Shown here in pieces: positions 5,320 through 32,976 of a DNA stretch of 39,986 nucleotides (positions within the stretch are counted from its first letter, which is position 1; each line of letters starts with the position of its first letter). The position numbers and the translations under genes were made by a program. Below the pieces are notes generated by a model. That model searched no databases. It was not told the origin of the DNA and saw only the letters and a list, made by a program, of their open reading frames with translations. Source of the stretch: Candidatus Spechtbacterales bacterium (GTDB lineage: Bacteria; Patescibacteriota; Minisyncoccia; Spechtbacterales; 2-12-FULL-38-22); contig JBBDXP010000009.1 of assembly GCA_040902285.1 (NCBI GenBank), positions 1-39,986 of the forward strand, given 5' to 3'.

Positions 5320-7143
5320 TTACGCCGAGGCCATTAATTTTTCAAACTCCTTTTTTTCTATGGTTTCTTTTTCCATAAGGTGCTTTGCCAGTTTCTCTAA
5401 CTTGCTTCTATTTTTTTGAATGGTAACTTTTGCTATTCTTTGGGCTTCTTTTATGAATTTAGATACTTCCTTATCTATGGTGTAGGCAATTTCTTCCGAA
5501 TAGTTTCTTTGTCCGGCCAATTCTTTTCCCAAAAATACCATTTCTTCGGTGTCGCCAAACACAACAGGGCCTAGCTTGTTGCTCATTCCATATTTGGATA
5601 CAAGGCGCCTTGCCAAGTCAGATGCTCTTTTTAAATCATCCGATGCGCCGGTTGATATGTCATTCAACACCATTTTTTCGGAAATATATCCTCCCAAAAG
5701 TACCGCAAGTTCGGCTTCAAACTGCGCCTTGGTTCTGAAGCTTCTTTCTTCCGTGGGAACTTTTAACGTATAACCCCCGGCCTGTCCGCGGGATATTATG
5801 GACACTTTGTGTACAGGGTCGCTTTCGGGCAGGGCGTTTGCAACAACTGCGTGTCCCGCTTCATGGTACGCGGCGGTTTCTTTATCTCTTTGCGTGTAAA
5901 CCCTGCTCTTTTTCTCCGGTCCAAGCATAACTTTTTCTATTGAATCAAGAAGGTCAACTTGTTCTACACTTTTTTTATTTCTCCGTGTGGCGTATATAGC
6001 CGCTTCATTCATTAAGTTTTCCAAATCAGCCCCGGAAAAACCGGGAGTTCTTGCCGCTATTTCTTTTATATCCGTGTTTCTGGCAAGCGGTTTTCCTTTT
6101 GCGTGCAGTTTAAGTATGGCCTCTCTCGCTCTAAGATCCGGCAGGCCTATTATCACGCGGCGGTCAAACCGGCCTGGGCGCAAAAGCGCTGGATCCAGCA
6201 CATCGGGACGATTTGTGGCCGCCATAACTATTATGCTTGCTCCTTGCTCGAAACCGTCCATTTCGTTGAGTATCTGGTTGAGAGTTTGTTCGCGTTCATC
6301 ATTTCCTCCGCCCATACCCGCGCCCCGGAGCCGTCCGACGGCGTCAATTTCATCTATAAATACAATGGCGGGGGAGTTTTTCTTGGCGGTTTCAAAAAGG
6401 TCTCGCACACGGCTCGCTCCAACGCCCACGAACATTTCTACGAATTCTGACCCGCTTATGGAATAAAAGGGAACACCCGCTTCTCCCGATATAGCCCTTG
6501 CCAAAAGTGTTTTTCCGGTTCCCGGGGGGCCCATAAGCATAAGCCCTTTTGGTATGCGCGCGCCCATTTTAAGAAATTTGCGGGGAGTTTTTAAAAATTC
6601 TACTATCTCTTTTAGTTCTTCTTTTTCTTCATCTTCTCCTGCCACATCTTTAAAGGTTATCCCTTGTTTTTTACCTTGCGCCCCTCCGAATAATTTTGCT
6701 TTGGCCTTGCCGAATGTGAATGCCTGCGAAGCGCCTCTTTGCATTCCGCCAAGCATAAACCAAAGAAAAAGTCCTATTATTATAAATGGAATTAATATGG
6801 GTATTGCTATACCGATCCAGAAAAGTAATCCGCTCTCACCTTTTAATTCAAGATTAACTTGCGCTAAATTGTCCTCTCGTACGCCGTAATTTCGCAATGT
6901 TTCGGTAAGCGACGCTTCAGCTTCTTTTTGTGATTTTTGTTTTTCGCCATTTTTAAGGGTTATTTCCAGTTCAGAGCCGGATACAACGATACTTTCCACT
7001 TCTCCTTCGTTTATTTTGGTGGCCAAAGTGTTTAAAGAAATTTTTTCGGCTTCTTGTCCGGGAGAATAAAAAAACGTGGCGAAACTGATAATTGCTATAA
7101 AAACCAATGCAACTATCATTATGTTTTTTGTTAGAGATTTCAT
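5320..7143 (-). CDS. ftsH: ATP-dependent zinc metalloprotease FtsH
   Basis: N-terminal TM helices, Walker A GPPGTGKT, Walker B/second region of homology, and the HEAGH zinc-binding motif. Length is 607 aa. Confidence 0.95.
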
Positions 7144-7221
7144 GCGATATTAAAATTTTACTTTTATTTATTGTAGCACAGGGGAATTTTATATCACATA
7201 CCCAACAAAAATTCAATAAAA

Positions 7222-7259
7222 TAAAAAAGTGCCCCGCTCGCGTTAAGCGAACGGGGCAC
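7222..7259 (-). terminator. Rho-independent terminator of the GC-rich gene
   Basis: Read on the minus strand: gtgccccg-ttcgcttaacgcgag-cggggcac followed by ttttttatt. Confidence 0.65.
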
Positions 7260-7271
7260 ACGGGGCCCGGA

Positions 7272-8033
7272 CTAGCTGTCCGAACTCTCCTCTGAGACCT
7301 CGGCGGCCTCAGTTGTCTCCGGAGCGGTCTCCGCCGAGGCCTCCGAAGAGGTCTCATTGGCATGCCGCGCCTGTCGGAGAAGGCGCTTCTCGTCGCGGAC
7401 GCTGAAGTACTCCATGAGCACTCGGGCGCCCTTCACTCGGCCCTCATTCCGCATCTGCTCGGCAGCTGCGGAAACGAGGTCGTTTCCGAGGTTGACGTGC
7501 AGCCACTCCTTGCCGTTCTCGGACTTCGGCACGATGATCTTGCGATCCTCGGTGCCGTAGTTGGCAAGAGCGGTGTGGTTCAGCCCTTCGACCTCCAGCG
7601 CTTGCCGGAGCTTGGCGGACTTGAAGCCCACATCGAGGAGGTTCTGTCCGGATGTCCGGGCGGCCGCGAACAGCGACTGCACCGGAACTCGTCCGCTCAG
7701 AACTGGAACCACGAGACGGAAGACCACCTGCGCGCGGGACTGCTCGTTGAGCTGGTCCATGCGGTTCTGGAGATCCTCGAACTCCTCCGGCTGCTCTTCG
7801 TGCGGACGGCGCGTCGTGATGCGCTTTGCCGCGTTCAGGGCAGCGAAGAAGGGATTCTCGGAACCCTGTCCCGAAGGAGCACGGTTGCCGATGCTGGCGC
7901 GCGGGGCCCTGGCTGGTGCCTTGGCCTCGCTCTCGCTCGAACCAGAGATCTGGTTCTCCTGCATCTGCGTCTGCAGGTTCTCGATCTGCTCCGGAGTGAT
8001 CTCCTTGGGGGAGACACTTCTCTTGCTAGCCAT
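7272..8033 (-). CDS. Hypothetical protein encoded in a GC-rich (~60%) island, probable horizontally acquired gene
   Basis: A GAAGGAGG RBS lies 7 nt before the ATG (MASKRSVSPKE...). The ORF has strong GC3 codon bias unlike its neighbours, an acidic S/E/T-rich C-terminus, and no family I can recognise. The long plus-strand ORFs over the same region are typical GC-rich antisense artefacts. Confidence 0.6.
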   Translation of the reverse strand: MASKRSVSPKEITPEQIENLQTQMQENQISGSSESEAKAPARAPRASIGNRAPSGQGSENPFFAALNAAKRITTRRPHEEQPEEFEDLQNRMDQLNEQSRAQVVFRLVVPVLSGRVPVQSLFAAARTSGQNLLDVGFKSAKLRQALEVEGLNHTALANYGTEDRKIIVPKSENGKEWLHVNLGNDLVSAAAEQMRNEGRVKGARVLMEYFSVRDEKRLLRQARHANETSSEASAETAPETTEAAEVSEESSDS

Positions 8034-8108
8034 AATTACCTCCTTCAAGGTTGGCTATCTGACCGATGTCGGCGCTTTTGCGCCTTAAGTTCACTGGGAA
8101 CTGCAGTA

Positions 8109-8137
8109 ATATTAGCATATTTACTAAAAAATGTCAA
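8109..8137 (-). promoter_or_regulatory. Sigma70-type promoter for the GC-rich gene (TTGACA-17-TAATAT)
   Basis: On the minus strand: TTGACA (8137-8132), the 17-nt spacer ttttttagtaaatatgc, then TAATAT (8114-8109). Confidence 0.6.
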
Positions 8138-8155
8138 CATTAGTTGACATTTTTT
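8126..8155. promoter_or_regulatory. Perfect palindrome AAAAATGTCAAC-atta-GTTGACATTTTT: rpsA terminator overlapping the -35, candidate operator
   Basis: The 12-bp arms are perfectly inverted around a 4-bp spacer. With the minus-strand T-run the palindrome works as a terminator for rpsA, and one arm contains the TTGACA -35 of the downstream gene. Confidence 0.55.
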
Positions 8156-12780: not shown

Positions 12781-13312
12781 AGAAAACAATCAGGCCTTAT
12801 TTTTAAATCCGTATGCGGTTGTTGGTGAGCTTGATATAAAAGACGGAATGAGCGTTGCCGAATTCGGTAGCGGGGCGGGGCATTTTGCGCTTTCGTTAGC
12901 TAGCAGAGTTAGCAAAAGCGGAAGAGTTTACGCCATTGATCTTCGCCAAAGCGTGTTGGAAGTTTTGGAAGGCCACATAAAGCTTAAGGGGCTTTTGCAA
13001 ATCAGGCCCATAAAGTCCGATTTAGAGGAGGCGAACGGCTCAACCCTTAAAGAAGGTTCGCAGGATATGGTTTTGTGCGCGAATATATTGCACCAGGTAG
13101 ACCATCCTTTCAATCTTATAAAAGAAGCGGGGCGTATTTTAAGGGAGGCAGGACGGCTTGTCGTTATCGACTGGCTTGAGGGTTCTGTGCTTGGTCCTCC
13201 CGACAGAATACCCAAAAAGAAGGTGGAAGAACTGGCCTTAGAAGCCGGATTTAAAAAAGACAAGGAGTTTGAAACGGGAAATCAGCATTATGGATTAATT
13301 TTTAAAAAGTAA
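12767..13312 (+). CDS. Class I SAM-dependent methyltransferase
   Basis: Motif [12 protein letters not shown] is present. The ORF overlaps the gyrA stop by 14 nt. Confidence 0.7.
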
Positions 13313-13448
13313 AGCAGTTGCTTGGCGAATAGAGCGACTGACAAAGTCGGACGCTCTAAGAGCTTAGAAACGCTTTATCCTGCACCTTGGTGCCAAGGTG
13401 CAGGATGCTCAATTTTCTATATAAAATTAAAATTTTAACAAAATCGGC

Positions 13449-14840
13449 ATGTCATTTTTTTCTGATTTTTCATACAACTGGCAGGTAATGCCGCCTTACA
13501 AGAAAAACCGAATTATTGTTGGCATAGTTGTGGCTATGGTATTGGCTGTTGTCGTTTTCGGAGTTTTGTCCGGATTTTTTAAACAAAAGGTAAGTGAATC
13601 TCAGCCCGTAACAATTGAGTTTTGGGATAGTTTTGACACCGGCGATGATTATCTTGAGGTATTCTCCAGATTTACCGATGAAAACCCAAATGTCTCAGTG
13701 CAATACAGAAAAATACCGCCCGAATTGTACCGACAGACCGTTACGGATGCATTGGCCGAAGGAGAAGGCCCTGACGTTTACGTTATACACAACACATGGC
13801 TTACTCAGGGGATAAGGCGTCTGGCTCCGATGAATGAATTTGTGGAAACAAATCCGGCGCTTATCTTGAATGAATTTCCCGATGTTGTTAGGTTTGATTT
13901 TACACGCGAGGGTTCAGCCGCTGTGCCTTTTATTTACGCACTGCCCATTTCCATAGATACGTTGGCGCTTTATTATAATGCAGATTATCTCAATAGCGAG
14001 GGCATCGTTGAGCCACCCGCGACGCTCGAACAGCTTGTCGAATATTCAAACCGCCTGCGAAAAATAGATGAAGCGGGCAACATACAGTTAGCCGGCTTAG
14101 CCGTGGGCGCTGCGGACAATGTTGACCATGCGACGGATATTCTATCTCTTTTGATGTTGCAGGGAGGGGCGCAAATGAATTCAACCTTCGATGAGTCGGT
14201 GACTTTTGACCAGCCGATTAAAGTAGGAGAGGACATTTTTTTCCCGGCCAGAGACGCAATGAACTTTTACACTTCTTTTTCGGACCCCGCCGCCGAAAAT
14301 TATACCTGGAGCCCCGCTTCGGAAAATTCTCTAGAGGCGTTTATAAAAGGAAAGGTGGCGATGATGATAAATTATTCGGATGCAGAAAATATTATACGTA
14401 GAGAGAATCCGGCTTTGAATTTTAAAGTCGCGCCGATGCCTCAGCCGGCCGGCCGTTTTGATAAAATAACTTATGCTAATTATTGGGGCCTTGCAGTGGC
14501 AAAAAACTCTAAAAACGCGCAATTGGCATGGGAACTTATCCACTATTTGACCCAGCCGGAGAATGCTACACTGTATTTGAGGGCTTCAGGGAGGCCTCCG
14601 GCGTTAAAATCGTTGATAGGCGAACCGATGTTTGACGAAGAGGGAGGGGAAATATTGGATCCTGATTATGACATGTTTTCCACCCAGATATTGACTGCCC
14701 GGTCGTGGATACAGCCGGATCCGGTCCGAGTGGATAGTATTCTCAAAAATGCTATAAACTATGTTCTAAACGGCGAAAAAAGCGCGGCTTTGGCAATAGG
14801 TGATGCCGTTCAACAGATAAATTCAATAATTAATTTTTAA
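13449..14840 (+). CDS. ABC transporter extracellular solute-binding protein (family 1, sugar-type), membrane anchored
   Basis: An N-terminal TM anchor is followed by an SBP_bac_1-like fold (e.g. ...VYVIHNTW..., ...YANYWGLAVAKNSKN...). Confidence 0.75.
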   Translation: MSFFSDFSYNWQVMPPYKKNRIIVGIVVAMVLAVVVFGVLSGFFKQKVSESQPVTIEFWDSFDTGDDYLEVFSRFTDENPNVSVQYRKIPPELYRQTVTDALAEGEGPDVYVIHNTWLTQGIRRLAPMNEFVETNPALILNEFPDVVRFDFTREGSAAVPFIYALPISIDTLALYYNADYLNSEGIVEPPATLEQLVEYSNRLRKIDEAGNIQLAGLAVGAADNVDHATDILSLLMLQGGAQMNSTFDESVTFDQPIKVGEDIFFPARDAMNFYTSFSDPAAENYTWSPASENSLEAFIKGKVAMMINYSDAENIIRRENPALNFKVAPMPQPAGRFDKITYANYWGLAVAKNSKNAQLAWELIHYLTQPENATLYLRASGRPPALKSLIGEPMFDEEGGEILDPDYDMFSTQILTARSWIQPDPVRVDSILKNAINYVLNGEKSAALAIGDAVQQINSIINF

Positions 14841-14841
14841 T

Positions 14842-15213
14842 ATGCTGAACATAAAAAATTTATTTTATACAGTTCTGTTGCTTGTTTTAGTTGTTTCGGC
14901 CAATTCCGCGGATGCCGTTGTAGAAATGAACGGCGGAGGAGGAGGATCGGGGGGAACCACAATAAGATTGCCCAATCCTCTTAAGGCCTCTAATTTTAAC
15001 CAGCTTTTGGAGTCGGTGCTGAACCTGCTTTTGGTTTTTGCCATTCCTCTGTATGCCCTTATGGTGGTTATAGCGGGCTATTATTTTCTTTTCGGGGGGC
15101 AAAATCCGGCAAACAGAGTCAAATCATTGACTATATTTAAATATGCGACCATAGGCCTTGTATTTTTGCTTTTTTCCAGAGCTATTGTTGCACTTATACA
15201 AGGTTCGTTATAA
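14842..15213 (+). CDS. TrbC/VirB2-like pilin-family small membrane protein
   Basis: A signal peptide, a Gly-rich stretch and two C-terminal TM helices with FLFGGQNPANRVK, which is shared with the three downstream paralogs. Confidence 0.55.
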   Translation: MLNIKNLFYTVLLLVLVVSANSADAVVEMNGGGGGSGGTTIRLPNPLKASNFNQLLESVLNLLLVFAIPLYALMVVIAGYYFLFGGQNPANRVKSLTIFKYATIGLVFLLFSRAIVALIQGSL

Positions 15214-15300
15214 AATAAGATTAGGAGATGGGGGTGTGAGATACAAACATCCCTAATTTAAAAAGGTCGTTTTTATTCAAAAAATAAAAACAAAATATTT

Positions 15301-15789
15301 ATGAAAACAAAAACATTAACCAATGTATCAAGAATAGCGACGGTTGCATTTTTGTTGGCAGCGTTTTCCTTAATGCTTGCCGGAAATGTGTTGGCGCACG
15401 GAAACCACAGCGCCACAACAGACAAGTGTTCCTTAAGGGCGACTGTAAGCGCAACCGAGGCGAATGATTTGACCGGAAAGACCGTGGGAACGCACGCACC
15501 AAGCACAACGGGAGGCCTTGACCTCGTGGACCCGAATGTTGCCGGGGATCATGCCCTTATTTGCACATACGGACTTATTAAGTTCGTTACAAATGTTTTG
15601 CTTGTAACGGTGCTTGTGGTTGCGACATTGCTTATCGCTTACGCCGCATTTCTGTTTGTTACAGCGGGCCAGAGCCCGGAAAAAAGAGGCAAAGCACGAG
15701 ATTTTCTTATCTTTGCCATTGTCGGTTTGGTTATAGCAGCGGTAGCAAGCTTGATACCCACCATAGTTCGTGGAATTATCGGAGTGTAA
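15301..15789 (+). CDS. TrbC/VirB2-like pilin-family protein, paralog 1
   Basis: Signal peptide (…LAHG), a ~70-aa exposed region with two Cys, then two TM helices (AAFLFVTAGQSPEKRGKARDF). A terminator hairpin follows. Confidence 0.6.
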   Translation: MKTKTLTNVSRIATVAFLLAAFSLMLAGNVLAHGNHSATTDKCSLRATVSATEANDLTGKTVGTHAPSTTGGLDLVDPNVAGDHALICTYGLIKFVTNVLLVTVLVVATLLIAYAAFLFVTAGQSPEKRGKARDFLIFAIVGLVIAAVASLIPTIVRGIIGV

Positions 15790-15813
15790 TTGCTTTAAGC
15801 GATTCAATCCCAA

Positions 15814-15842
15814 AAACACCCCTTAGCGGGGTGTTTTTGTTA
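15814..15842 (+). terminator. Rho-independent terminator
   Basis: aaacacccc-ttagc-ggggtgttt followed by ttgtt. Confidence 0.7.
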
Positions 15843-15939
15843 TAGGGGTGAAAACGGGGTTGTATTGCAATCAATATTTGTGTAAAATAAAATTATCATT
15901 GATTTTATCGATTTTAAAATACTTATAAGTAAAATAATT

Positions 15940-16425
15940 ATGATAAAAATATTAAAAGCGCCAAAAGCCATTATTGTAACATTTGTTTTAGCGGGAATAC
16001 TTTTTGGTACGGTTCCCGGTGTGTTGGCTCATGGAACACACACAACGTCGTTAGCAGGCAGCGGGTATTGTCTGTTAAGAGTTACCGTTTCTGCCGGTGA
16101 CGCGCAACAACTTACGGGCAGATCTGTGGGTACGCACCCCGCCGGTTACAGGCTTAGTTTAACTGAGCCAACCATAGGTGGAGAACACGCGCTGATATGC
16201 GCCTACGGCCTTATCGGATTTATAACAAATGTGCTCCTTATATTTATACTTGTGGTTGCTGCGGCGTTTATCGCTTATGCCGCGTTTCTGTTTGTTACAG
16301 CGGGCGCCAATCCGGCCACCCGGACGAAAGCCAGGGACTTTTTCCTGTATGCCGTTATAGGTTTGATTGTGGCTCTTTTGGCAAGCCAGATCCCCACCCT
16401 TGTCAGGGGAATTCTCGGAGTATAA
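15940..16425 (+). CDS. TrbC/VirB2-like pilin-family protein, paralog 2 (divergent exposed region)
   Basis: Same architecture as paralog 1. The TM region is conserved and the exposed region has diverged (YCLLRVTVSAGDAQQLTGRSVGTHPAGYRLSL...). Confidence 0.6.
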   Translation: MIKILKAPKAIIVTFVLAGILFGTVPGVLAHGTHTTSLAGSGYCLLRVTVSAGDAQQLTGRSVGTHPAGYRLSLTEPTIGGEHALICAYGLIGFITNVLLIFILVVAAAFIAYAAFLFVTAGANPATRTKARDFFLYAVIGLIVALLASQIPTLVRGILGV

Positions 16426-16451
16426 AAATTAATTATTAAATAAAAATTAAC

Positions 16452-16928
16452 ATGACAAAAATTACGAAAATATCAAGAATTGTCATTGTTGCCTTCGCAC
16501 TTGCCGGTCTTCTTGTGGCACCAAGCGTGTTGGCGCACGGAAGCCACACCGCTACAACAAACAAGTGTTCCTTAAGGGCGACTGTAAGCGCAACCGAGGC
16601 GAATGATTTGACCGGAAAGACCGTGGGAACGCACGCACCAAGCACAACGGGAGGCCTTGACCTCGTGGATCCGAATGTTGCCGGGGATCATGCCCTTATT
16701 TGCACATACGGATTTATTAAGTTCGTTACAAATGTTTTGCTTGTAGTTATTCTTGTTGTGGCATCTCTGCTTATCGCTTATGCCGCATTTCTGTTTGTTA
16801 CAGCCGGCGGGAATCCGGCCAATAGAGAGAAAGCGCGTTCCTATCTTATATTTGCGGTTATAGGCCTTGTTGTTGCTGTTGTGGCAGCGCTTATTCCAAC
16901 CATTGTCAGAGGAATCATCGGGGTATAA
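16452..16928 (+). CDS. TrbC/VirB2-like pilin-family protein, paralog 3
   Basis: Carries a ~190-bp tract nearly identical to paralog 1 (16558-16745 versus 15421-15608). Confidence 0.6.
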   Translation: MTKITKISRIVIVAFALAGLLVAPSVLAHGSHTATTNKCSLRATVSATEANDLTGKTVGTHAPSTTGGLDLVDPNVAGDHALICTYGFIKFVTNVLLVVILVVASLLIAYAAFLFVTAGGNPANREKARSYLIFAVIGLVVAVVAALIPTIVRGIIGV

Positions 16929-16950
16929 GTTTTTGCGTTCACAAATGATA

Positions 16951-16983
16951 AAAATCCCCCGCGCTAAGCAGGGGATTTTTATA
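16951..16983 (+). terminator. Rho-independent terminator of the pilin array
   Basis: aaaaatcccc-cgcgctaagca-ggggattttt. Confidence 0.7.
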
Positions 16984-17008
16984 AAAAAGCCCCGCATTAT
17001 GCGGGGCA
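16982..17008 (-). terminator. Rho-independent terminator of the minus-strand operon
   Basis: On the minus strand: gccccgc-ataa-tgcggggc followed by ttttttat. Confidence 0.65.
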
Positions 17009-17017
17009 GAGTTTGTA

Positions 17018-17473
17018 CTATCGAAGCAACCTTACGGTTATTGTAATGGTAGTATTTTCTCCATTGAGAGAGCGCACGCGGAAAATTCCTGTGCTTTCTC
17101 CAAGCCAAACAGGTGCGCGATTTGTGTTATCCACAATCTCAGTTCCGTCAATGAACTGAATTTTAATGATAGAGCCCTTTTCGGCAAATATCCAAAATTG
17201 GTCCGTTGTGACAGGAACGGTTATCCATCCGCTCCAGCATCCGGGCCTTGCGGTTACAACCATTCTGCGCTGGTCATCGTCCATTTGGGTATGTCTGTAT
17301 CCGTGACACCAGATATTCGCTTCTGCTTGCGAAGAATTTCCCGTTAAACTGTCTAAACCGCCGTTATCGGCTATTTCCTGGCGCCCCAGCGCGAGGAACA
17401 CAATAACGGCTCCCGTGAGCAGATACCACCAAAACTTGCCTATTCCGTTGCCGTTAGCTTTCATCAGGCGCAT
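17018..17473 (-). CDS. Membrane-anchored small protein, possibly an NfeD-like partner of the SPFH protein
   Basis: An N-terminal TM helix is followed by a beta-rich C-terminal domain. The ORF overlaps the upstream SPFH gene by 20 nt, which argues for an operon. The NfeD assignment is tentative. Confidence 0.45.
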   Translation of the reverse strand: MRLMKANGNGIGKFWWYLLTGAVIVFLALGRQEIADNGGLDSLTGNSSQAEANIWCHGYRHTQMDDDQRRMVVTARPGCWSGWITVPVTTDQFWIFAEKGSIIKIQFIDGTEIVDNTNRAPVWLGESTGIFRVRSLNGENTTITITVRLLR

Positions 17474-18638
17474 CTTTCTTTAGCATGTGGACAACCGCTT
17501 CCGCCAGCTCCAGAAGAACGCTCCTGGTTTTAGGTTCTATGCCAAAGCTGCTCTCGTTCCTGTTGACTTCCTTTTTGATTTTTCCGGCTTCCACTTGGGT
17601 AGCTTCCAGAGCTGCCTCTCCAGAAATTCCAAGTTGTTCCTGCATTTCCTTAGAGAGTTGGGTGCGCGTTCTGGTTTCGGTCCTCTCTGAACTGCGCTGG
17701 AGTTTTTCGATAGCGTTTTTCTTGTCCGCTTCGAATATTCTGTCTATAACTTCGGCTGTTTTGCCGATTGCCTGTATTCCTCCAATGTTAAGGAAGGTAA
17801 GCACAATACCAAGTTCCCTGTGGGCTCTTGTGCCTTTTCCTCGTTTCAATTCGCGGATTATTTCGCGCCTGCATTCCACAGATTCTCTGAGAGCGTCCAT
17901 TTCATCTTGGGTGGGCTGTTCCTGCTTGAGAATACTCTCAACTTTGGTCCAGTCCCTGCCCCAATTTTTTATCTGCGGCTTAGCGGGAGGTTTGCCTTCA
18001 AAATATCGCAGAAGTACCGGTGTCGGCACTGATGACGGAATATGGTCCATTTCGGAGCCAAGGATGCTTTTTGCCAAAACGGCAACAGCTTCATCGGATG
18101 CCATCATGCCTTCCTGCACGGTTCTCGGTTCATGTTCGTCGGAGAAAGCCCAGGTACGCAAAGATTGGTGGACTATGTTTTGCAGAATATCTTTGACACC
18201 CTTTTCCCCGCCACTGTTCAGGTAGTTTATGATATATTTGCGCGAAGGGTGGAACACTATACCGACCGGAATTTCCAGTTCTCCGAAATCGGGAGTTCGG
18301 ACTTTTTGATGCGGAAGGTCAAAATCAATACGCGTAATTTCAACCGCAATATACCCGTAAAAATAAGGATAAAGCGGGAAAAATCTCCAACCCTCCTCTT
18401 TTGTGTCCCCGGTTCTCTGTCCCAAAATAGTTACCGCGGCCACATGCGGGGGATCGGCTTCTATCCGCCTCATACCGCTAAAGATATACCATCCCATTAC
18501 CAGCATAAAAACAGCTATCCCGATATTATTGTTGGTAAGATCGGCAACAGTGAGCGCCGCGAAAGCGGACGCCGCAAGCATATATAGGGTAATGGATATT
18601 TCACTGAGAAATACCTTTCGCAGTGCTTTAAGAGCCAT
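17454..18638 (-). CDS. SPFH/band-7 (stomatin/flotillin-like) domain membrane protein
   Basis: N-terminal TM helices, an SPFH-like core (…PPHVAAVTILGQRTGDTKEEGWRFFPLYP…FDLPHQKVRTPDFGELEIPVGIVF…), and a C-terminal coiled-coil E/K/R-rich region. Confidence 0.6.
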   Translation of the reverse strand: MALKALRKVFLSEISITLYMLAASAFAALTVADLTNNNIGIAVFMLVMGWYIFSGMRRIEADPPHVAAVTILGQRTGDTKEEGWRFFPLYPYFYGYIAVEITRIDFDLPHQKVRTPDFGELEIPVGIVFHPSRKYIINYLNSGGEKGVKDILQNIVHQSLRTWAFSDEHEPRTVQEGMMASDEAVAVLAKSILGSEMDHIPSSVPTPVLLRYFEGKPPAKPQIKNWGRDWTKVESILKQEQPTQDEMDALRESVECRREIIRELKRGKGTRAHRELGIVLTFLNIGGIQAIGKTAEVIDRIFEADKKNAIEKLQRSSERTETRTRTQLSKEMQEQLGISGEAALEATQVEAGKIKKEVNRNESSFGIEPKTRSVLLELAEAVVHMLKKDAPDES

Positions 18639-25832: not shown

Positions 25833-25907
25833 GGTCCCATCGTCTAGTCCGGCCTAGGACGCCAGGTTTTCATCCTGGTAACACGGGTTCGAATCCCGTT
25901 GGGACCG
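25833..25907 (+). tRNA. tRNA-Glu(TTC)
   Basis: ggtccca/tgggacc acceptor, 3-bp D stem gtc/gac with loop tagtccggcctag (the E. coli Glu-like architecture), anticodon loop ttttcat, T-loop ttcgaat. The tRNA is flanked by a perfect 15-nt complementary leader and trailer (aataattaactttgc / gcaaagttaattatt). Confidence 0.85.
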
Positions 25908-26055
25908 CAAAGTTAATTATTTGAGATTTTAGGGAAACAAAAAAGCACGCTATCTGCCGCGTTGCTCCTCCTCGAAATAGCGCTATTGCTATTATTCCTT
26001 CGTCGTTGCGCCTTGCATCTAGCATACTTTTTTGTTTTCAAATTGATTTTAGATT

Positions 26056-26131
26056 GCAAAGAGCAGGCTAAGGCCTAGGACGCCAGGTTTTCATCCTGGT
26101 AACACGGGTTCGAATCCCGTTGGCTCTGCCA
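26056..26131 (+). pseudogene. tRNA-Glu-like pseudogene: 52-nt exact copy of the tRNA-Glu 3' portion joined to a non-matching 5' side
   Basis: 26072-26123 is identical to 25850-25901 of tRNA-Glu. The acceptor 3' strand (tggctct-g-cca) does not pair with the upstream sequence. The inverted repeat caaagagcaggct (26057-26069) matches agcctgctctttg (25676-25688), which sits next to a 13-nt tRNA-Glu 5' fragment (25660-25672). Confidence 0.6.
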
Positions 26132-27908: not shown

Positions 27909-27946
27909 TAACCTAGATTGATAGTACCTTGAAAAAGGAGGACGAA

Positions 27947-29842
27947 GTGGCCGAAGAACCTCAAATACAAAATACTCAAAAGAATTCTAAAGAATTCGAT
28001 GTACTTATCGCAATATCCACAGAACTGCGGGAAAAAGCGAACGGTATGTTAAGTGAGGATTTTGTCCGTCATATAGACGATATAACAGAAAAAGCGGATG
28101 AACTTGAGACCGCGCGAAAACTGCAGGCGCAGGAGGCGTCGAGGGATATCCAGCAAAATAAGCTGGCCTATCTTAATAAAATAAGAGAACTTAGCATAGA
28201 ACTAAATCAACTTAGCCGAATGCTGAGCGCTCTTAAGGAACAGCCCCCGCTGATGTCTGCCAAATTTGTTAGATTTGTCCGTTATCATGAAATAGAAGAA
28301 TACGGCAAGAAGGTAAAGATTCCAGTTGTGGATATTGTAAATTCCAGCGGTTCCAACGCGCGCGTTTTTGTGCATCCGGAGCTGGATGTTTCCAATGTTA
28401 AGTATGGACAGCGCGTTCTTGTAAGCGCGGGCAACATGACTATAATGGAAATTTTGCAAGAATTCGAGGTTATAGGACAAGAAGCATATGTCGAGGCTCT
28501 CTTGGAACCCGATTTTGAAGGTAAGCGTGTTTTGGTATCGGAAGGCCAGCTGGACATGAAAATAGTGGCGCATCTGTCCTCTTCCGTGGAAGATAAAGAA
28601 ATGGAAGAAGGCACTAGGGTTCTTGTAGATACAAAGACATCTTTGGTCGTGGAAGTGCTTCCCGAGCATGAGAGCCGCCGTTACATTGTGGGCGAAATCC
28701 CAAATGTCACTTTTTCTGATATCGGAGGCCTGGACGGCATTATCGCGAGGATAGACGAGCATGTTATATGGCCTATAATCTATCCCGATGTGTGGGAAAA
28801 AATAGGATTGGATTCTCCAAAAGGATTTGTGCTTGCCGGCCCGCCGGGTGTGGGCAAAACCATGATTGCCAAGGCGTTGGTAAACTATCTTAATGAAAAA
28901 CTCGAGGAAGTTCATGGCAAACCCGTACAGGGCCGTTTCTTCCACATTGCCGGACCTGAAATTCAAAACAAATATGTGGGCGAGACCGAACGCATTATGC
29001 GCGAGATATTTGCCCAGGCGGCAAAGAATGCTTCTCCGCTAAGCCCCTCCTTGGTATTTTTTGACGAAGCGGACGCGCTTTTCCCAAGACGCGGTTCGGG
29101 AGTCTCCTCCGATGTTGAAAAGACGAATGTTACCCAATTTACAGCCCTTATGGACGGCCTTGAGACCAGGAGCAACATTATAGTTGTTTTGGCGACAAAC
29201 CGCCCCGAACTTTTGGATCCCGCGGTCATACGGCCCGGGCGCTCGGACTTCACTGTGGATGTTCCGCGGCCCAACGAAGAAGCCGCCAAAGCCATTTTTG
29301 CCAAATACATAAGGCCCGAATGGGGGCAGATAAATCCTAAATACGATCAGGAGGTTTATATTCCAAAAGACAAAAAGGGCAATACGCGCGTTGATGACTC
29401 CGGAAGTGATATAAAACTTTACTTCGGACACAAGCCGCAAGAGGTTGTGGATTATCTTATCGCTAAAGCAACAGCGCGCATGTACGATCTGGACAATCCA
29501 AGAAACAAATTTATCAAACTCAAGTTTAGGGATTATTCGGAAAAAACTCTCCGTTACGGCGATTTTGCCTCCGGCGCTATGATTAAAAATATAGTGGATC
29601 GTGCCAAGAGATTTTCCGTTCATGATCATAAGGTTGGAGGTGAAGAACTCGGGATAACTCTCGTACACCTGTACAAAGCCATTGAAGAGGTCTTTTCTGA
29701 GCTTAGGGGTCCTTCCGGAGCCGGCGATTCCAGCACCTGGCTTGAAATAGAAGGCCATGTCCGCGGAAATAACGTTACGGGAATAGAATTTCTATCCAGA
29801 GATGCGGATGATTCTGACGATGATGAAGAGCCCATTTTATAA
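27947..29842 (+). CDS. ARC/Mpa-like (proteasome-associated-ATPase family) AAA ATPase
   Basis: An N-terminal coiled-coil (…LSIELNQLSRMLSALKEQ…) is followed by a tandem OB-fold inter-domain (…NARVFVHPELDVSNVKYGQRVLVSAGNMTIMEIL…). The single AAA module has Walker A GPPGVGKT, KYVGETERIMREIF, and Walker B/arginine finger VVLATNRPELLDPAVIRPGR. The C-terminus …DDEEPIL has no GQYL/HbYX docking motif. Confidence 0.8.
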   Translation: MAEEPQIQNTQKNSKEFDVLIAISTELREKANGMLSEDFVRHIDDITEKADELETARKLQAQEASRDIQQNKLAYLNKIRELSIELNQLSRMLSALKEQPPLMSAKFVRFVRYHEIEEYGKKVKIPVVDIVNSSGSNARVFVHPELDVSNVKYGQRVLVSAGNMTIMEILQEFEVIGQEAYVEALLEPDFEGKRVLVSEGQLDMKIVAHLSSSVEDKEMEEGTRVLVDTKTSLVVEVLPEHESRRYIVGEIPNVTFSDIGGLDGIIARIDEHVIWPIIYPDVWEKIGLDSPKGFVLAGPPGVGKTMIAKALVNYLNEKLEEVHGKPVQGRFFHIAGPEIQNKYVGETERIMREIFAQAAKNASPLSPSLVFFDEADALFPRRGSGVSSDVEKTNVTQFTALMDGLETRSNIIVVLATNRPELLDPAVIRPGRSDFTVDVPRPNEEAAKAIFAKYIRPEWGQINPKYDQEVYIPKDKKGNTRVDDSGSDIKLYFGHKPQEVVDYLIAKATARMYDLDNPRNKFIKLKFRDYSEKTLRYGDFASGAMIKNIVDRAKRFSVHDHKVGGEELGITLVHLYKAIEEVFSELRGPSGAGDSSTWLEIEGHVRGNNVTGIEFLSRDADDSDDDEEPIL

Positions 29843-29859
29843 AATCGCACATTCTTTTG

Positions 29860-29887
29860 ACCCCCGACTGCAAAGCGGGGGTTTTTA
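29860..29887 (+). terminator. Rho-independent terminator
   Basis: acccccg-actgcaaa-gcgggggt followed by ttttatttt. Confidence 0.75.
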
Positions 29888-29898
29888 TTTTAATAAAA

Positions 29899-29927
29899 TT
29901 GACACACGACCGCCAAACGACTATACT
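29899..29927 (+). promoter_or_regulatory. Sigma70-type promoter TTGACA-17-TATACT upstream of the dop-like gene
   Basis: ttgaca cacgaccgccaaacgac tatact. The 5'UTR attagtaccttaaaaaggagg shares the agtacctt(g/a)aaaaaggagg motif with the ARC and Lon-like leaders. Confidence 0.6.
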
Positions 29928-29962
29928 TAGTGCAATTAGTACCTTAAAAAGGAGGCATAAGC

Positions 29963-31579
29963 ATGCCTGACAAGCCGCGCAAGATAATAATTGGCGCTGA
30001 AACCGAATATGGAATATTTGCGACAGAAAACGGCCAAATACTTGATAATGAGGCCTTAGGACTTGTGAGAGAGGCCGAAAATGTAACCAAAGATTTTTTC
30101 CTTCGCCCGCTTGAGGGCATAGAAGATACCGAAGAACATGAAAATCTTGATTCTATGACTGATGAGGATTTTTTGCGCCAACCGGAAAGTTATCAAAGTT
30201 CCGGAGAAAGGCAGAGGCGCGGCCTTACCGGTTTTGTTCTCTCAAACGGATGCAGATTCTATGTTGATATGGGTCATCCGGAGTATTCAATTCCCGAAAC
30301 AACAAATCCCATGGATGCTCTTGTCGCGCAAAAAGCGGGAGACAGGATAGTTGAGCTTTGCAGAAGATTATTTGAGGAAAGATTAAAGAACGAAAATAGG
30401 AATATTTCGATTCGTTTGGATAAAAACAATAGCGACGGTAAAGGGAACAGCTATGCCGCGCACGAAAATTATTCTCTTACCCCCGAAACCTTTACGGAAA
30501 TAACTAATCGTTATGGGTCAAGAGAGTTGGAAGATATTGTGTTGAATTTTTTCACCACGCGCCAGATAGTGACAGGGGCCGGAAAGGTTGGATACGAGAC
30601 AGGAAGACCCGTTCCATACCAAATAAGCCAGCGTGCGGATTTTATTGAAAAGGAAAAAAGCTTAAACACGGTCGAAAAGAGGGGGATAATAAATTTGCGG
30701 GACCATTCCTATGCCGGATACGATGATGTCCGCAGATTGCATGTTATATGCGGAGACGGCAACATGTCCGAATTGTCTCTGTATCTTAAATTCGGCACAA
30801 CAGCGCTTATTTTAATGATGCTTGAAAGCGGATTTATACAGAGCGAAGGAAGTTCTGTTTTGATTCGCATGCAAAATCCCGTCCGCTCGTATAAAAATGT
30901 ATCAAGAGACCTTTCCCTGGGCCACAAGATATTTTTTGAGGACGGTTCTAAAAGGACCGCTTTAGCCATACAGGAGGAATTTTATTCTCTGGCCAAAAAA
31001 TTTACCGATGGAAACGATATTGATCCTATATGGCGCGATGTCGCAGACAAGTGGGAAAAGGTTTTGCACGGTCTTGCCGGGGAAAGAAATTCTGATGAAT
31101 GGGCCGGCAATCTGGACTGGGTTAAAAAAGAAACCATACTCAAACGGCATCAGGAGAAAAAAGGAGTTTCTCCGCTTCATCACACATGCCGCGCCGTGGA
31201 TCTTCAGTACCACAACATAAATCCCGAAAAAAGCATTTATTGGCGCCTGGCTGAAAGAGGAGACATACTTTTGTTTGCCACCAAAGCCGATATAGAGAGG
31301 GCTATTAATGAGCCACCTTCGGACACAAGGGCGTGGTTCAGAGGGCAAACCGTTAAACAGTTTAGAAATGTTCTGGACGGTATCGGCTGGCAATATATTA
31401 AATTTGCCGATAAATACATTTTTATGGGCAATCCATTTTCTGGTTCAAAAGAAGCAGCAGAGAGTATTTTTGCGGGGGTTTCTTCTCCGGAAGAATTTAT
31501 TGAAAGATTGTCGAAAGCAATTGAACGGAAGGAGAGTGGATTGGAGGGCTTTAGTGTCGGAGAAGGGTGGTTGATATAA
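29963..31579 (+). CDS. dop: Pup-ligase-family protein, Dop-like (depupylase/deamidase-type)
   Basis: The N-terminal IIIGAETEYGIF strand (Dop-type E-Y-G) is followed by a ~45-aa insertion before the conserved RFYVDMGHPEYS block, consistent with a Dop loop. The carboxylate-amine-ligase fold is retained at 538 aa. The Dop versus PafA call is an inference. Confidence 0.7.
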   Translation: MPDKPRKIIIGAETEYGIFATENGQILDNEALGLVREAENVTKDFFLRPLEGIEDTEEHENLDSMTDEDFLRQPESYQSSGERQRRGLTGFVLSNGCRFYVDMGHPEYSIPETTNPMDALVAQKAGDRIVELCRRLFEERLKNENRNISIRLDKNNSDGKGNSYAAHENYSLTPETFTEITNRYGSRELEDIVLNFFTTRQIVTGAGKVGYETGRPVPYQISQRADFIEKEKSLNTVEKRGIINLRDHSYAGYDDVRRLHVICGDGNMSELSLYLKFGTTALILMMLESGFIQSEGSSVLIRMQNPVRSYKNVSRDLSLGHKIFFEDGSKRTALAIQEEFYSLAKKFTDGNDIDPIWRDVADKWEKVLHGLAGERNSDEWAGNLDWVKKETILKRHQEKKGVSPLHHTCRAVDLQYHNINPEKSIYWRLAERGDILLFATKADIERAINEPPSDTRAWFRGQTVKQFRNVLDGIGWQYIKFADKYIFMGNPFSGSKEAAESIFAGVSSPEEFIERLSKAIERKESGLEGFSVGEGWLI

Positions 31580-32976
31580 TGAAAGACAGAGCCGTTGGTA
31601 TAGAAAATGAATTTGGCGTAATGCTTAAGGATGATTTTGGCAATTTTAGTTCTCAAGAGAACGAAATGCTGGCCATTAACAGCATTCCTCGTGAAAATTT
31701 GCCTCAAGGGGGTGGAATGTCCAACGGACGTTTCTGGCTTGCCAACGGAGGCAGTGTATACATAGACCTGGGCCATCCGGAATATGCTTCTCCCGAATGT
31801 CTCAGGTTGCGTGATCTGATTGCTGTAAGCCGCGCGGGAGAGAGGATTTGTTCCCGTATGTTCCATTACGCTGTTAGTAATGGAAGGTATTGGCAGCTTT
31901 TTAAGAATAATTTGGAAATTAGCGCCGAAGGAGGAGAAGGAAATTCGTTCGGATGTCATGAAAATTATCTCATTCACGGATATAAGCCGGAAGACGAGGT
32001 CATGCATACGCATCTTCTTCCCTTTCTGATAACTCGGCAGATATTGGACGGAGCGGGATGGTGGGCTTCGGACGGCAGATTTTCATTTTCTCAAAGAGCG
32101 TTGATTTTGGGCACCGTGGCGGCAATGGGTACCACGGAGGGGATAAGCCGTCCCATCATAAATCTTAGAGACGAGCCCCATATACAGAATAGGGAAGGAA
32201 TGAGCAGGTTGCATCTCATTTTGGGCGATGCCAACATGCTGGACTGGGCCTTGTATCTTAAATTCGGTACCACCTCCCTTGTACTGGCCATGCTTGAAGA
32301 AGGCCATATATTCAGGGATACGTGCCAAAATCCCATTGAAGCCATGCGCAGAGTGGCGTTTGATAAGACCGCGCGGAAACGGCTATTGAAATTTAGCGGG
32401 CGCGGGAAAATGAGCGCGCTAGAAGTGCAGGAATTTTACCTTGCCAAAGCCGAAAAATACGTCTCTATAACTGATTTTGCAAGCTACGAAAGCAGATTGG
32501 AAGCGCTCCAAACCGTGTGCATGTGGCGCGAGGCCTTAAATGCGATAAAAAATCGCGATACCGCATGGATGCTCGGACGGCTTGATTGGGCAACAAAGCT
32601 GTATCTTGGAAACAAAGAGTGGTCGAACAAAAAAAATTCGGGCGCTAGTGAAATGGACATCAAAAAACGCGTTGATATTCTTTATCACGCCGTGACCGAC
32701 ACAAGATTGCGCGACCGAATATATGCCAAGTGGCCGAACAGGCAGCTGGTCGGCGGACAGGAAATTGAGTATATGATAAATAATCCCCCACTGGACACCC
32801 GCGCGAGAATAAGGGCGTTGTTTATTGATCTCTGCTCAAAAAAACAATTCGGCACGGATAAGGACATATCTGTGAATTGGTCCAAAATAGTATATAGAGG
32901 CAAGGCGTTTAACTTGGGATACCCTTTAGACAAGGATAATCTCGAGGTTGAGAAACTTATCAGAAATCTCTTGTAA
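31579..32976 (+). CDS. pafA: Pup-ligase-family protein, PafA-like
   Basis: VGIENEFGVM (PafA-type E-F-G) with no loop insertion; SVYIDLGHPEYASPE; 466 aa. Its ATG overlaps the dop-like stop as TAATG, which suggests translational coupling. The track ORF begins at an upstream GTG (31567). Confidence 0.7.
   Translation: MKDRAVGIENEFGVMLKDDFGNFSSQENEMLAINSIPRENLPQGGGMSNGRFWLANGGSVYIDLGHPEYASPECLRLRDLIAVSRAGERICSRMFHYAVSNGRYWQLFKNNLEISAEGGEGNSFGCHENYLIHGYKPEDEVMHTHLLPFLITRQILDGAGWWASDGRFSFSQRALILGTVAAMGTTEGISRPIINLRDEPHIQNREGMSRLHLILGDANMLDWALYLKFGTTSLVLAMLEEGHIFRDTCQNPIEAMRRVAFDKTARKRLLKFSGRGKMSALEVQEFYLAKAEKYVSITDFASYESRLEALQTVCMWREALNAIKNRDTAWMLGRLDWATKLYLGNKEWSNKKNSGASEMDIKKRVDILYHAVTDTRLRDRIYAKWPNRQLVGGQEIEYMINNPPLDTRARIRALFIDLCSKKQFGTDKDISVNWSKIVYRGKAFNLGYPLDKDNLEVEKLIRNLL

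Follow-up and report, generated by a model that had tools for sequence, protein, structure and literature searches.

The stretch analysed here, referred to as the window, is 40 kb of a metagenome-assembled contig in a Candidatus Spechtbacterales genome (W) of the phylum Minisyncoccota, also named Patescibacteria or candidate phyla radiation (CPR). Four consecutive genes in the window, P0 to P3 (positions 14842–16928, + strand), probably represent a chromosomal tandem array of VirB2-like pilin subunits, with gene conversion between P1 and P3 and with concerted evolution that recurs in related genomes. The ORF list shows all four as complete open reading frames (ORFs) with a start codon and a signal-like N-terminus. 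P0 (14842–15213) is a short-type gene of 123 aa whose product combines a signal peptide and a Gly-rich N-terminus with a two-helix hairpin. The other three are long-type genes: P1 (15301–15789, 162 aa), P2 (15940–16425, 161 aa), which is the divergent middle copy, and P3 (16452–16928, 158 aa), which starts 26 nt past P2. The database copies of P0, P1 and P3 (WD712_01345, WD712_01350 and WD712_01360) are annotated as hypothetical proteins and carry precomputed PF18895 matches, with PF04956 in addition in P0.

P1 and P3 share an internal tract of 185 nt (15422–15606 in P1, codons 41–102, and 16561–16745 in P3). The two copies align without gaps at an offset of 1139 and differ at positions 15531 and 15574; the exact runs inside the tract are 109, 42 and 32 nt. 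A looser shoulder with 4 mismatches is found on the 5' side (15388–15421). An earlier reading of the letters of this DNA (the sequence-only reading) had reported the tract and its two mismatches, which are real, but with coordinates 2–3 nt out and an offset of 1137. It had also given about 80% identity for the remainder of the two genes. That figure is the whole-gene value (379/474 nt, and 80% at the aa level as well), and the nt identity outside the tract is 68% (196/289). The rate of synonymous substitution per site (dS, NG86) is 0.02 in the tract, whereas the 5' and 3' flanks have values of 1.06 and 1.44, respectively. P2 has 55–56% nt identity to P1 and P3 in the tract segment, and this is its most divergent part; the divergence of P2 in the exposed region had been pointed out before, and holds, the exposure being predicted. 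The residues encoded by the tract make up the larger part of the N-terminal extension, which is predicted to be exposed, together with the initial ~20 residues of helix 1. Because an internal patch with a dS of about 0.02 lies between two flanks with dS above 1, and because P2 is diverged in the same segment, a recent gene conversion between P1 and P3 is supported, as the sequence-only reading had proposed. Comparisons of the four genes with the window by blastn and tblastn showed no further copies or fragments.

Several other origins of the tract were rejected. P1 and P3 have a run of 69 concordant sites among the 290 polymorphic sites of the alignment, and chance does not produce such a run: it was reached in 0 of 100,000 permutations, the largest permuted run being 35. 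Purifying selection or protein constraint does not explain identical synonymous sites in a segment where P2 is the most divergent. A simple hybrid gene formed by unequal crossing-over does not fit a patch that is internal and has diverged sequence on both sides.

Scans of genome and metagenome contigs revealed only 3 and 5 related loci, respectively; the long-type pilin subfamily is narrow. The relatives share a gene order of gyrA, a methyltransferase gene and a solute-binding protein (SBP) gene, then the pilin genes, and further on VanW, HSP20, PrsW, ValRS and TsaD. Copy number and mosaicism, which the sequence-only reading had marked for comparison, do vary among relatives, with 2, 3 or 6 pilin genes and one mosaic allele. 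Genome A, found on contigs L001, L003 and L004 from three samples (99.6–99.8% identical), has three short and three long genes, six in all; lineage E (L007) has one short and two long genes, three in all; and Spechtbacteria RIFCSPLOWO2_12_FULL_38_22 (L006) has two pilin genes. Strains A2, B and C are represented by the short contigs L014, L015 and L017 only. The long copies g4, g5 and g6 of genomes A and B correspond in position to P1, P2 and P3.

The relationships among the long genes depend on the segment that is compared. In the middle segment the first and third long copies of the same genome are 98.4% (W), 86.7% (A) and 87.8% (B) identical, whereas across genomes the values are 62–67% (W–A) and 77–84% (A–B). 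The 3' hairpin segment displays the opposite relationship: paralogs have 69–70% identity (P1–P3 and B_g4–B_g6) and orthologs 78–87% (P1–A_g4, B_g4–A_g4 and B_g6–A_g6). Within genome B, g4 and g6 are 70% identical in the 3' segment, as against 86–87% to their orthologs, and 86% identical in the 5' segment, as against 63–64% to orthologs; the similarity of B_g4 and B_g6 extends into the upstream leader. In two relatives, then, genes cluster with their orthologs in the 3' hairpin region but with the other genes of their own genome in the 5' and middle regions, which is recurrent concerted evolution. The pattern in genome A is the same in three independent assemblies. The middle gene keeps its ortholog identity throughout (P2–A_g5, 68% in the middle segment; B_g5–A_g5, 78–91%). 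No clear ortholog exists for the 3' end of P3, which has 64–72% identity to all (69% to A_g6), and the two long copies of lineage E are 54% identical and have no common tract. Because the 3' segment of P1 is nearer to A_g4 (78%) than to P3 (69%), the P1/P3 split looks older than the W–A speciation and the tract looks younger.

The converted segment is also the one that changes most between genomes. The nonsynonymous rate (dN) between P1 and A_g4 is 0.25 in the middle segment compared with 0.08 in the 3' segment, a difference of about three times. Between A_g4 and A_g6 the dN/dS ratio is ~0.65 in the homogenised middle segment, a value from small counts. Strain A2 carries a mosaic allele: nt 1–377 of its g6 are 100% identical to A_g6, and the last 111 nt have 76.6% identity to A_g6 but 90.1% to a g4-type gene of strain C. 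An alignment of A2 contig L014 (ERZ27254845 k141_2198038, positions 908–1436) with L001 (6355–6880) shows that the 3' end of g6 and 40 nt past its stop codon are more like the 3' end and downstream spacer of g4-type genes than those of g6. The contig stops there. Either unequal crossing-over that enlarged the array further, or a repeat at which the contig was broken, could account for this end. A similar sharing of segments is seen in the short-type genes of genome A (L001, 4018–5134), where near-identity links g2 to g3 in the initial ~92 nt, the part for the signal peptide and the Gly-rich start, and g1 to g2 in ~90 nt of the loop and helix-2 region. A possible strain mosaicism of gene 4 (162 aa in L001, 145 aa in L003 and L004) was rejected; the contigs are collinear and 99.6% identical, the 3' end is common, and it is the start call that differs.

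The four proteins have the organization of an exported pilin, and the earlier claim of four consecutive signal-peptide genes with a common two-helix C-terminus is correct for ORFs 14842–16928, the hairpin being present in all. By inspection, each N-terminus has a K/R-rich n-region followed by a hydrophobic core and a predicted cleavage site, V-L-A/H-G, with the cut between A and H. The C-terminus of each has two hydrophobic helices linked via a short basic loop. P1–P3 carry an insert of ~50 residues between the predicted signal-peptidase site and helix 1; in P1 the signal peptide spans approximately residues 1–32 and the N-terminal extension that follows contains Cys43 and Cys88. The two cysteines of the insert are invariant across all long-type homologues. 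An AlphaFold2 model of P1 displays helices at residues 8–31 (signal), 81–121 and 126–160, with the basic loop QSPEKRGKARD between the last two. The confidence score pLDDT, taken per 10 residues, rises from ~71 to 93 over residues 81–150 and is 81 for residues 151–160.

The motif H-G-x-H forms the predicted mature N-terminus of the long pilins, directly past the A/H signal-peptidase site (15394–15408 in P1, 16027–16041 in P2 and 16533–16547 in P3). It is kept in lineages W, A, B, C and E (L001, L015, L017 and L007 for the relatives) and is absent from L006, P0008 and P0009. As a speculation, the motif and the two invariant cysteines might together constitute a metal-binding or otherwise modified N-terminus.

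The assignment to the TrbC/VirB2-like pilin family, also made in the sequence-only reading, is supported by profile scores. Matches to PF18895 (T4SS_pilin, cut-off 26.6 bits) are 27.0 bits for P1 and 27.1 bits for P3, above the cut-off, and 25.0 bits (E 2e-5) for P0 and 23.6 bits (E 5e-5) for P2, near it. P0 also comes near the cut-off of PF04956 (TrbC/VirB2, 27.9 bits) with 26.6 bits (E 7e-6); P1 scores 12.6 bits on this profile, and P2 and P3 have no match to it at E ≤ 1. The best NCBIfam match is NF045849, a "pilin-like conjugal transfer protein" (cut-off 40 bits), with E values of ~2e-7 to 4.5e-7 for P1 and P3, below the cut-off in score. PF18895 is found on 29/29 profile matches in 5.8 billion clusters, and one of these is called "pilin" by NCBI; a full phmmer scan shows 1494 representative clusters that match P1 at E ≤ 1e-3. 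The link to the classical VirB2 of diderm bacteria is weak. The profile comparison with VirB2/TrbC that had been suggested as a check gave the correct helix-loop-helix register when the family alignment was set against five annotated VirB2/TrbC proteins with hhalign, yet a probability of only 5% (E 0.0075); a smaller family alignment gave 0.3%. When the family alignment was used as a profile against PDB sequences, no pilin was found, only chance matches of membrane helices, and fold searches, relevant to a match with solved T4SS pilins (TraA, VirB2, TrwL), were non-specific, the fold being generic.

Two conserved DNA blocks lie on either side of the tract. The first encodes VLAHG.H and is common to all three long paralogs (15387–15409 in P1, 16020–16042 in P2 and 16526–16548 in P3; 83–91% identity). 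It sits at the 5' edge of the tract. The second is 3' of the tract and consists of the codons for IAYAAFLFVTAG in P1 (15634–15672); in the nucleotide alignment there are three differing positions among P1, P2 and P3, each at a third codon position. The two blocks are candidate homology anchors for recombination between the paralogs.

The proteins would be exported via a Sec signal peptide and cut after V-L-A, leaving a hairpin of helix, basic loop and helix. Solved structures of conjugative pili have the termini of the pilin on the outside and its basic loop along the lumen. By analogy, the N-terminal extension of the long paralogs may lie on the surface of a filament. P1, P2 and P3 are apparently old duplicates, as judged from the 3' segment and from the orthologs of P2. 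Non-reciprocal homologous recombination, presumably RecA-dependent, would then have copied 185–219 nt between the non-adjacent direct repeats P1 and P3. The converted patch takes in almost all of the extension and the beginning of helix 1, with the signal-peptide and hairpin regions left diverged. The same process recurs in the related genomes, on other segments, and the 5' two-thirds of the array therefore undergo concerted evolution. The predicted exposed module is alike in copies 1 and 3 inside a genome and different between genomes, whereas the 3' hairpin follows ortholog lines. If the subunits do assemble into a pilus, such exchange may serve to match or to vary the specificity of attachment to a host cell.

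A bolder proposal is that ectopic conversion between expressed VirB2-like paralogs is frequent, is anchored on the VLAHG and IAYAAFLFVTAG blocks, and re-assorts exposed modules, signal peptides and hairpin scaffolds. This is rather unlikely. If true, populations of an epibiotic ultrasmall bacterium would continually renew the surface of their pili, which would let them follow their host cells or change to others, and this would be the first recombination-driven surface variation described in CPR, on a pilin of the type IV secretion system (T4SS) rather than of the type IV pilus (T4P).

Some observations weigh against the interpretation as a pilin array with a converted tract. P0 and P2 fall slightly under the PF18895 cut-off. 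The N-terminal extension has pLDDT values of only 48–73 per 10-residue block, which is low confidence. The tract is seen in a single assembled metagenome contig. VirB4, VirB6, VirD4, VirB11 and other T4SS genes are absent from the window (14.8 kb upstream and 23 kb downstream of the array), so that the associated VirB4/VirB11 which the sequence-only reading proposed to look for is not present there, and no T4SS gene is found on the Pfam-annotated syntenic contigs L001 and L003–L005 either. The lack of T4SS genes is also an argument for a non-pilin reading, in which the four proteins are small bitopic or hairpin envelope proteins, perhaps tied to a co-transcribed solute-binding protein, with PF18895 as a loose family; the tract would still be real. 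Consistent with this, an orphan SBP_bac_1 gene precedes the array in every case (in W and A the two are separated, or overlap, by 1 nt), the similarity to true VirB2 is not significant, and the fold is generic. Against it stand the match of P0 to PF04956 at E = 7e-6 and the matches of P1 and P3 to a profile from Mycoplasma integrative and conjugative elements (ICEs), and a basic loop between two hydrophobic helices fits the VirB2 architecture. PF18895/VirB2-like genes of Patescibacteria adjoin virB4 in 1135/1948 assemblies, an association that is common and not obligatory (Quinonero-Coronel et al. 2025, PMC12102498), and the array of Candidatus Southlakia epibionticum ML1 lies inside a T4SS cluster and is essential (Wang et al. 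2023, PMC10633639; PMC12857230). The non-pilin reading is considered unlikely.

As to the tract, an assembly or binning artefact, i.e., collapse or cross-consensus between paralogs or strains, might be suspected in a metagenome-assembled contig that was seen once, and arrays of this family often are on short fragmented contigs of 0.8–2.2 kb. It can hardly be the cause. In each copy, at loci 1139 nt apart, the internal patch is bordered left and right by diverged sequence that is unique to that copy, and the two single mismatches inside it show that the assembly kept the copies separate. No exact repeat exceeds 109 nt, and a mis-join there would delete or duplicate P2, not homogenise P1 and P3. 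Equivalent partial homogenisation is present in relatives that were assembled independently from three samples. It is also very improbable that P3 is a very recent duplicate of P1 whose ends diverged fast or were overwritten, so that the flanks rather than the tract were converted. This would agree with the lack of a clear ortholog for the 3' end of P3, with a shared NPANR motif and a 25-nt match of 80% between P3 and P0, and with the presence of two long copies only in lineage E, but it needs two replacements, or a dS above 1 in both flanks while the middle stays at 0.02. Because genomes A and B likewise hold three long copies, in an unchanged order, and the 3' ends of these cluster by ortholog, the three-copy state predates the tract. 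A duplicate of this kind would still involve ectopic recombination, and the general conclusion would not change. A dedicated variation system, of the Neisseria pilE/pilS or Anaplasma msp2 type, would switch the exposed module of an expressed pilin frequently and in a programmed manner, for evasion or host specificity. The converted segment is indeed the predicted exposed and fastest-evolving part (P1–A_g4 dN as above), it is flanked by conserved DNA blocks, co-occurring strains differ in mosaic alleles, and the A_g4/A_g6 dN/dS ratio in the middle segment is the ~0.65 given above, on small counts. Yet there are three long copies only, all full length, with no truncated silent cassettes or other fragments in the window; no canonical G-quadruplex (G4, G3+) motif on either strand of 13301–17600; and no invertase or reverse-transcriptase match among the window ORFs scanned against Pfam. 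Moreover, conversion made two expressed-looking genes more alike, not different, and the events separate species or strains that are 1–25% diverged, with no sign of high frequency. A programmed system is accordingly judged quite improbable, and the likeness to surface-protein variation drawn in the sequence-only reading stands as an analogy only. Occasional conversion within an array of VirB2-like pilin genes is the interpretation preferred here.

The array has stable hairpins 3' of P0, P1 and P3. The terminator-like hairpin after P1, AAAAACACCCC-TTAGC-GGGGTGTTTTT (15811–15839, + strand), has a delta G of -18.9 kcal/mol (z -3.4), and that at the end of the array, after P3 (16948–16982, + strand), has a delta G of -19.5 kcal/mol (z -5.2). 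Promoter-like hexamers precede P2 (15865–15893 and 15893–15920, + strand), and a terminator-like hairpin for the convergent genes is present on the - strand (16989–17007). The hairpin and promoter calls are consensus matches and do not constitute proof of transcription units. Directly upstream of the array is an SBP_bac_1 solute-binding protein gene with an N-terminal membrane anchor (13449–14840, + strand); its stop is 1 nt before the start of P0. No ABC permease or ATPase gene adjoins it. The adjacency of this gene to the pilin genes is kept across four Spechtbacterales lineages (the window, L001, L006 and L007), and in L001 there is a 1-nt overlap between it and the first pilin gene. Downstream of the array the genes are convergent; the first encodes a 151-aa protein of unknown function, and Band_7 and VanW come next.

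The remainder of the window is ordinary chromosome, with genes for gyrA, FtsH, ValRS, TsaD, ribosomal proteins, Pup ligases, a Lon-like protease and RecG, and tRNAs. Rfam matches in the window are tRNAs only, with nothing within the array. A weak tRNA-like Rfam match (26060–26128, 35.2 bits) that is uncalled by ARAGORN is located near tRNA-Glu (25833–25908). Positions 7000–8150 have 56% GC, compared with ~44% elsewhere, and include a - strand ORF for an acidic, hydrophilic protein of 258 aa (7272–8048) that overlaps + strand ORFs; this region has no Pfam match and no Rfam match. At positions 27929–32976, a gene for an ARC/Mpa-like AAA ATPase of the proteasome type, which has Prot_ATP_ID_OB domains, precedes two PafA/Dop-like genes of the Pup-ligase family. 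It is from Actinobacteria that genes for pupylation are best known.

The closest known systems are the VirB2-like arrays (PF18895/PF04956) of Patescibacteria, of which a survey lists 441, with 2–11 genes each, in 383 assemblies (PMC12102498). The phylum, the family, the tandem layout, the monoderm host and the signal peptide with a two-helix hairpin are the same, and the four genes here, and the two to six in relatives, are inside the published range. The present array differs in sequence identity and location. Within-array aa identity in the survey has a mean of 25% and a maximum of 54%, whereas P1 and P3 have 80% aa identity and a 98.9%-identical tract of 185 nt, and the array in the window is away from virB4, between the SBP gene and convergent housekeeping genes. 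The term "gene conversion" is absent from the text of PMC12102498, and in the literature searched no paper was found that combines Patescibacteria, pilin and gene conversion. The array type is thus already known, and its modestly new feature is that conversion recurs among the pilin genes of a CPR array; taken alone, this is an incremental observation, since both the gene family and the recombination process are well known. Patescibacteria rely on contact with host cells, and no system of this kind other than their T4SS with its pilin array has been shown to be essential for the epibiotic lifestyle (PMC10633639). The sole survey describes array pilins as uniformly divergent, but this locus shows that paralogs exchange sequence, at least in Spechtbacterales.

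The same family also includes single ORFs with 7–15 tandem two-helix modules, one N-terminal signal peptide and no internal ones, e.g., P0036 (606 aa, 7 copies), P0047 (820 aa, 8 copies) and P0054 (1775 aa, 15 copies), and also P0052, P0060, P0072 and P0090. Such poly-pilin polyproteins repeat at the level of domains what the arrays do at the level of genes. Neither "polyprotein" nor "repeats" appears in PMC12102498, where "fused" and "fusion" concern VirB3-VirB4. The NF045849 family of Mycoplasma ICEs (Mbov_0395) is alike in being a monoderm, conjugation-associated two-helix protein, and residues 88–160 of the P1/P3 hairpin align with positions 12–80 of the 80 in the profile. The scores are 29.5–30.6 bits, however, and the Mycoplasma proteins are ~80 aa in length, are without the extension and are found inside ICEs.

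Neisseria pilE/pilS is similar in that an internal segment encoding the exposed part of a pilin is transferred non-reciprocally and is bounded by conserved blocks. The Neisseria pilin, however, is a T4P pilin unrelated to VirB2. That system draws on numerous silent cassettes, truncated and without promoters, and has a single expression locus with a G4-forming initiator; these features are all absent here. A closer parallel is Trw of Bartonella, in which tandem copies of trwL (a VirB2 homolog) and trwJ have been described in terms of "diversifying selection and concerted evolution" (Nystedt et al. 2008, as cited in PMC2883598), and trwL copies are implicated in host-specific adhesion in the same account (PMC2883598). 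Both systems have tandem VirB2-family paralogs, a copy number that varies between species and recombination that blurs orthology; surface-exposed parts diversify between lineages, and the segment-wise incongruence observed here is the same signature. The differences are that Trw is a diderm MPF_T system acquired from an IncW-like plasmid, with trwL inside the trw operon, whereas the host here is a monoderm CPR bacterium with a very distant pilin subfamily and an array outside any visible T4SS cluster. The likeness to trwL is a functional analogy and not a membership based on homology. A predicted exposed module that is homogenised within genomes and different between them is the signature that has been tied to host specificity in Bartonella Trw, and this locus may provide a testable handle on host-range evolution in uncultivated ultrasmall bacteria.

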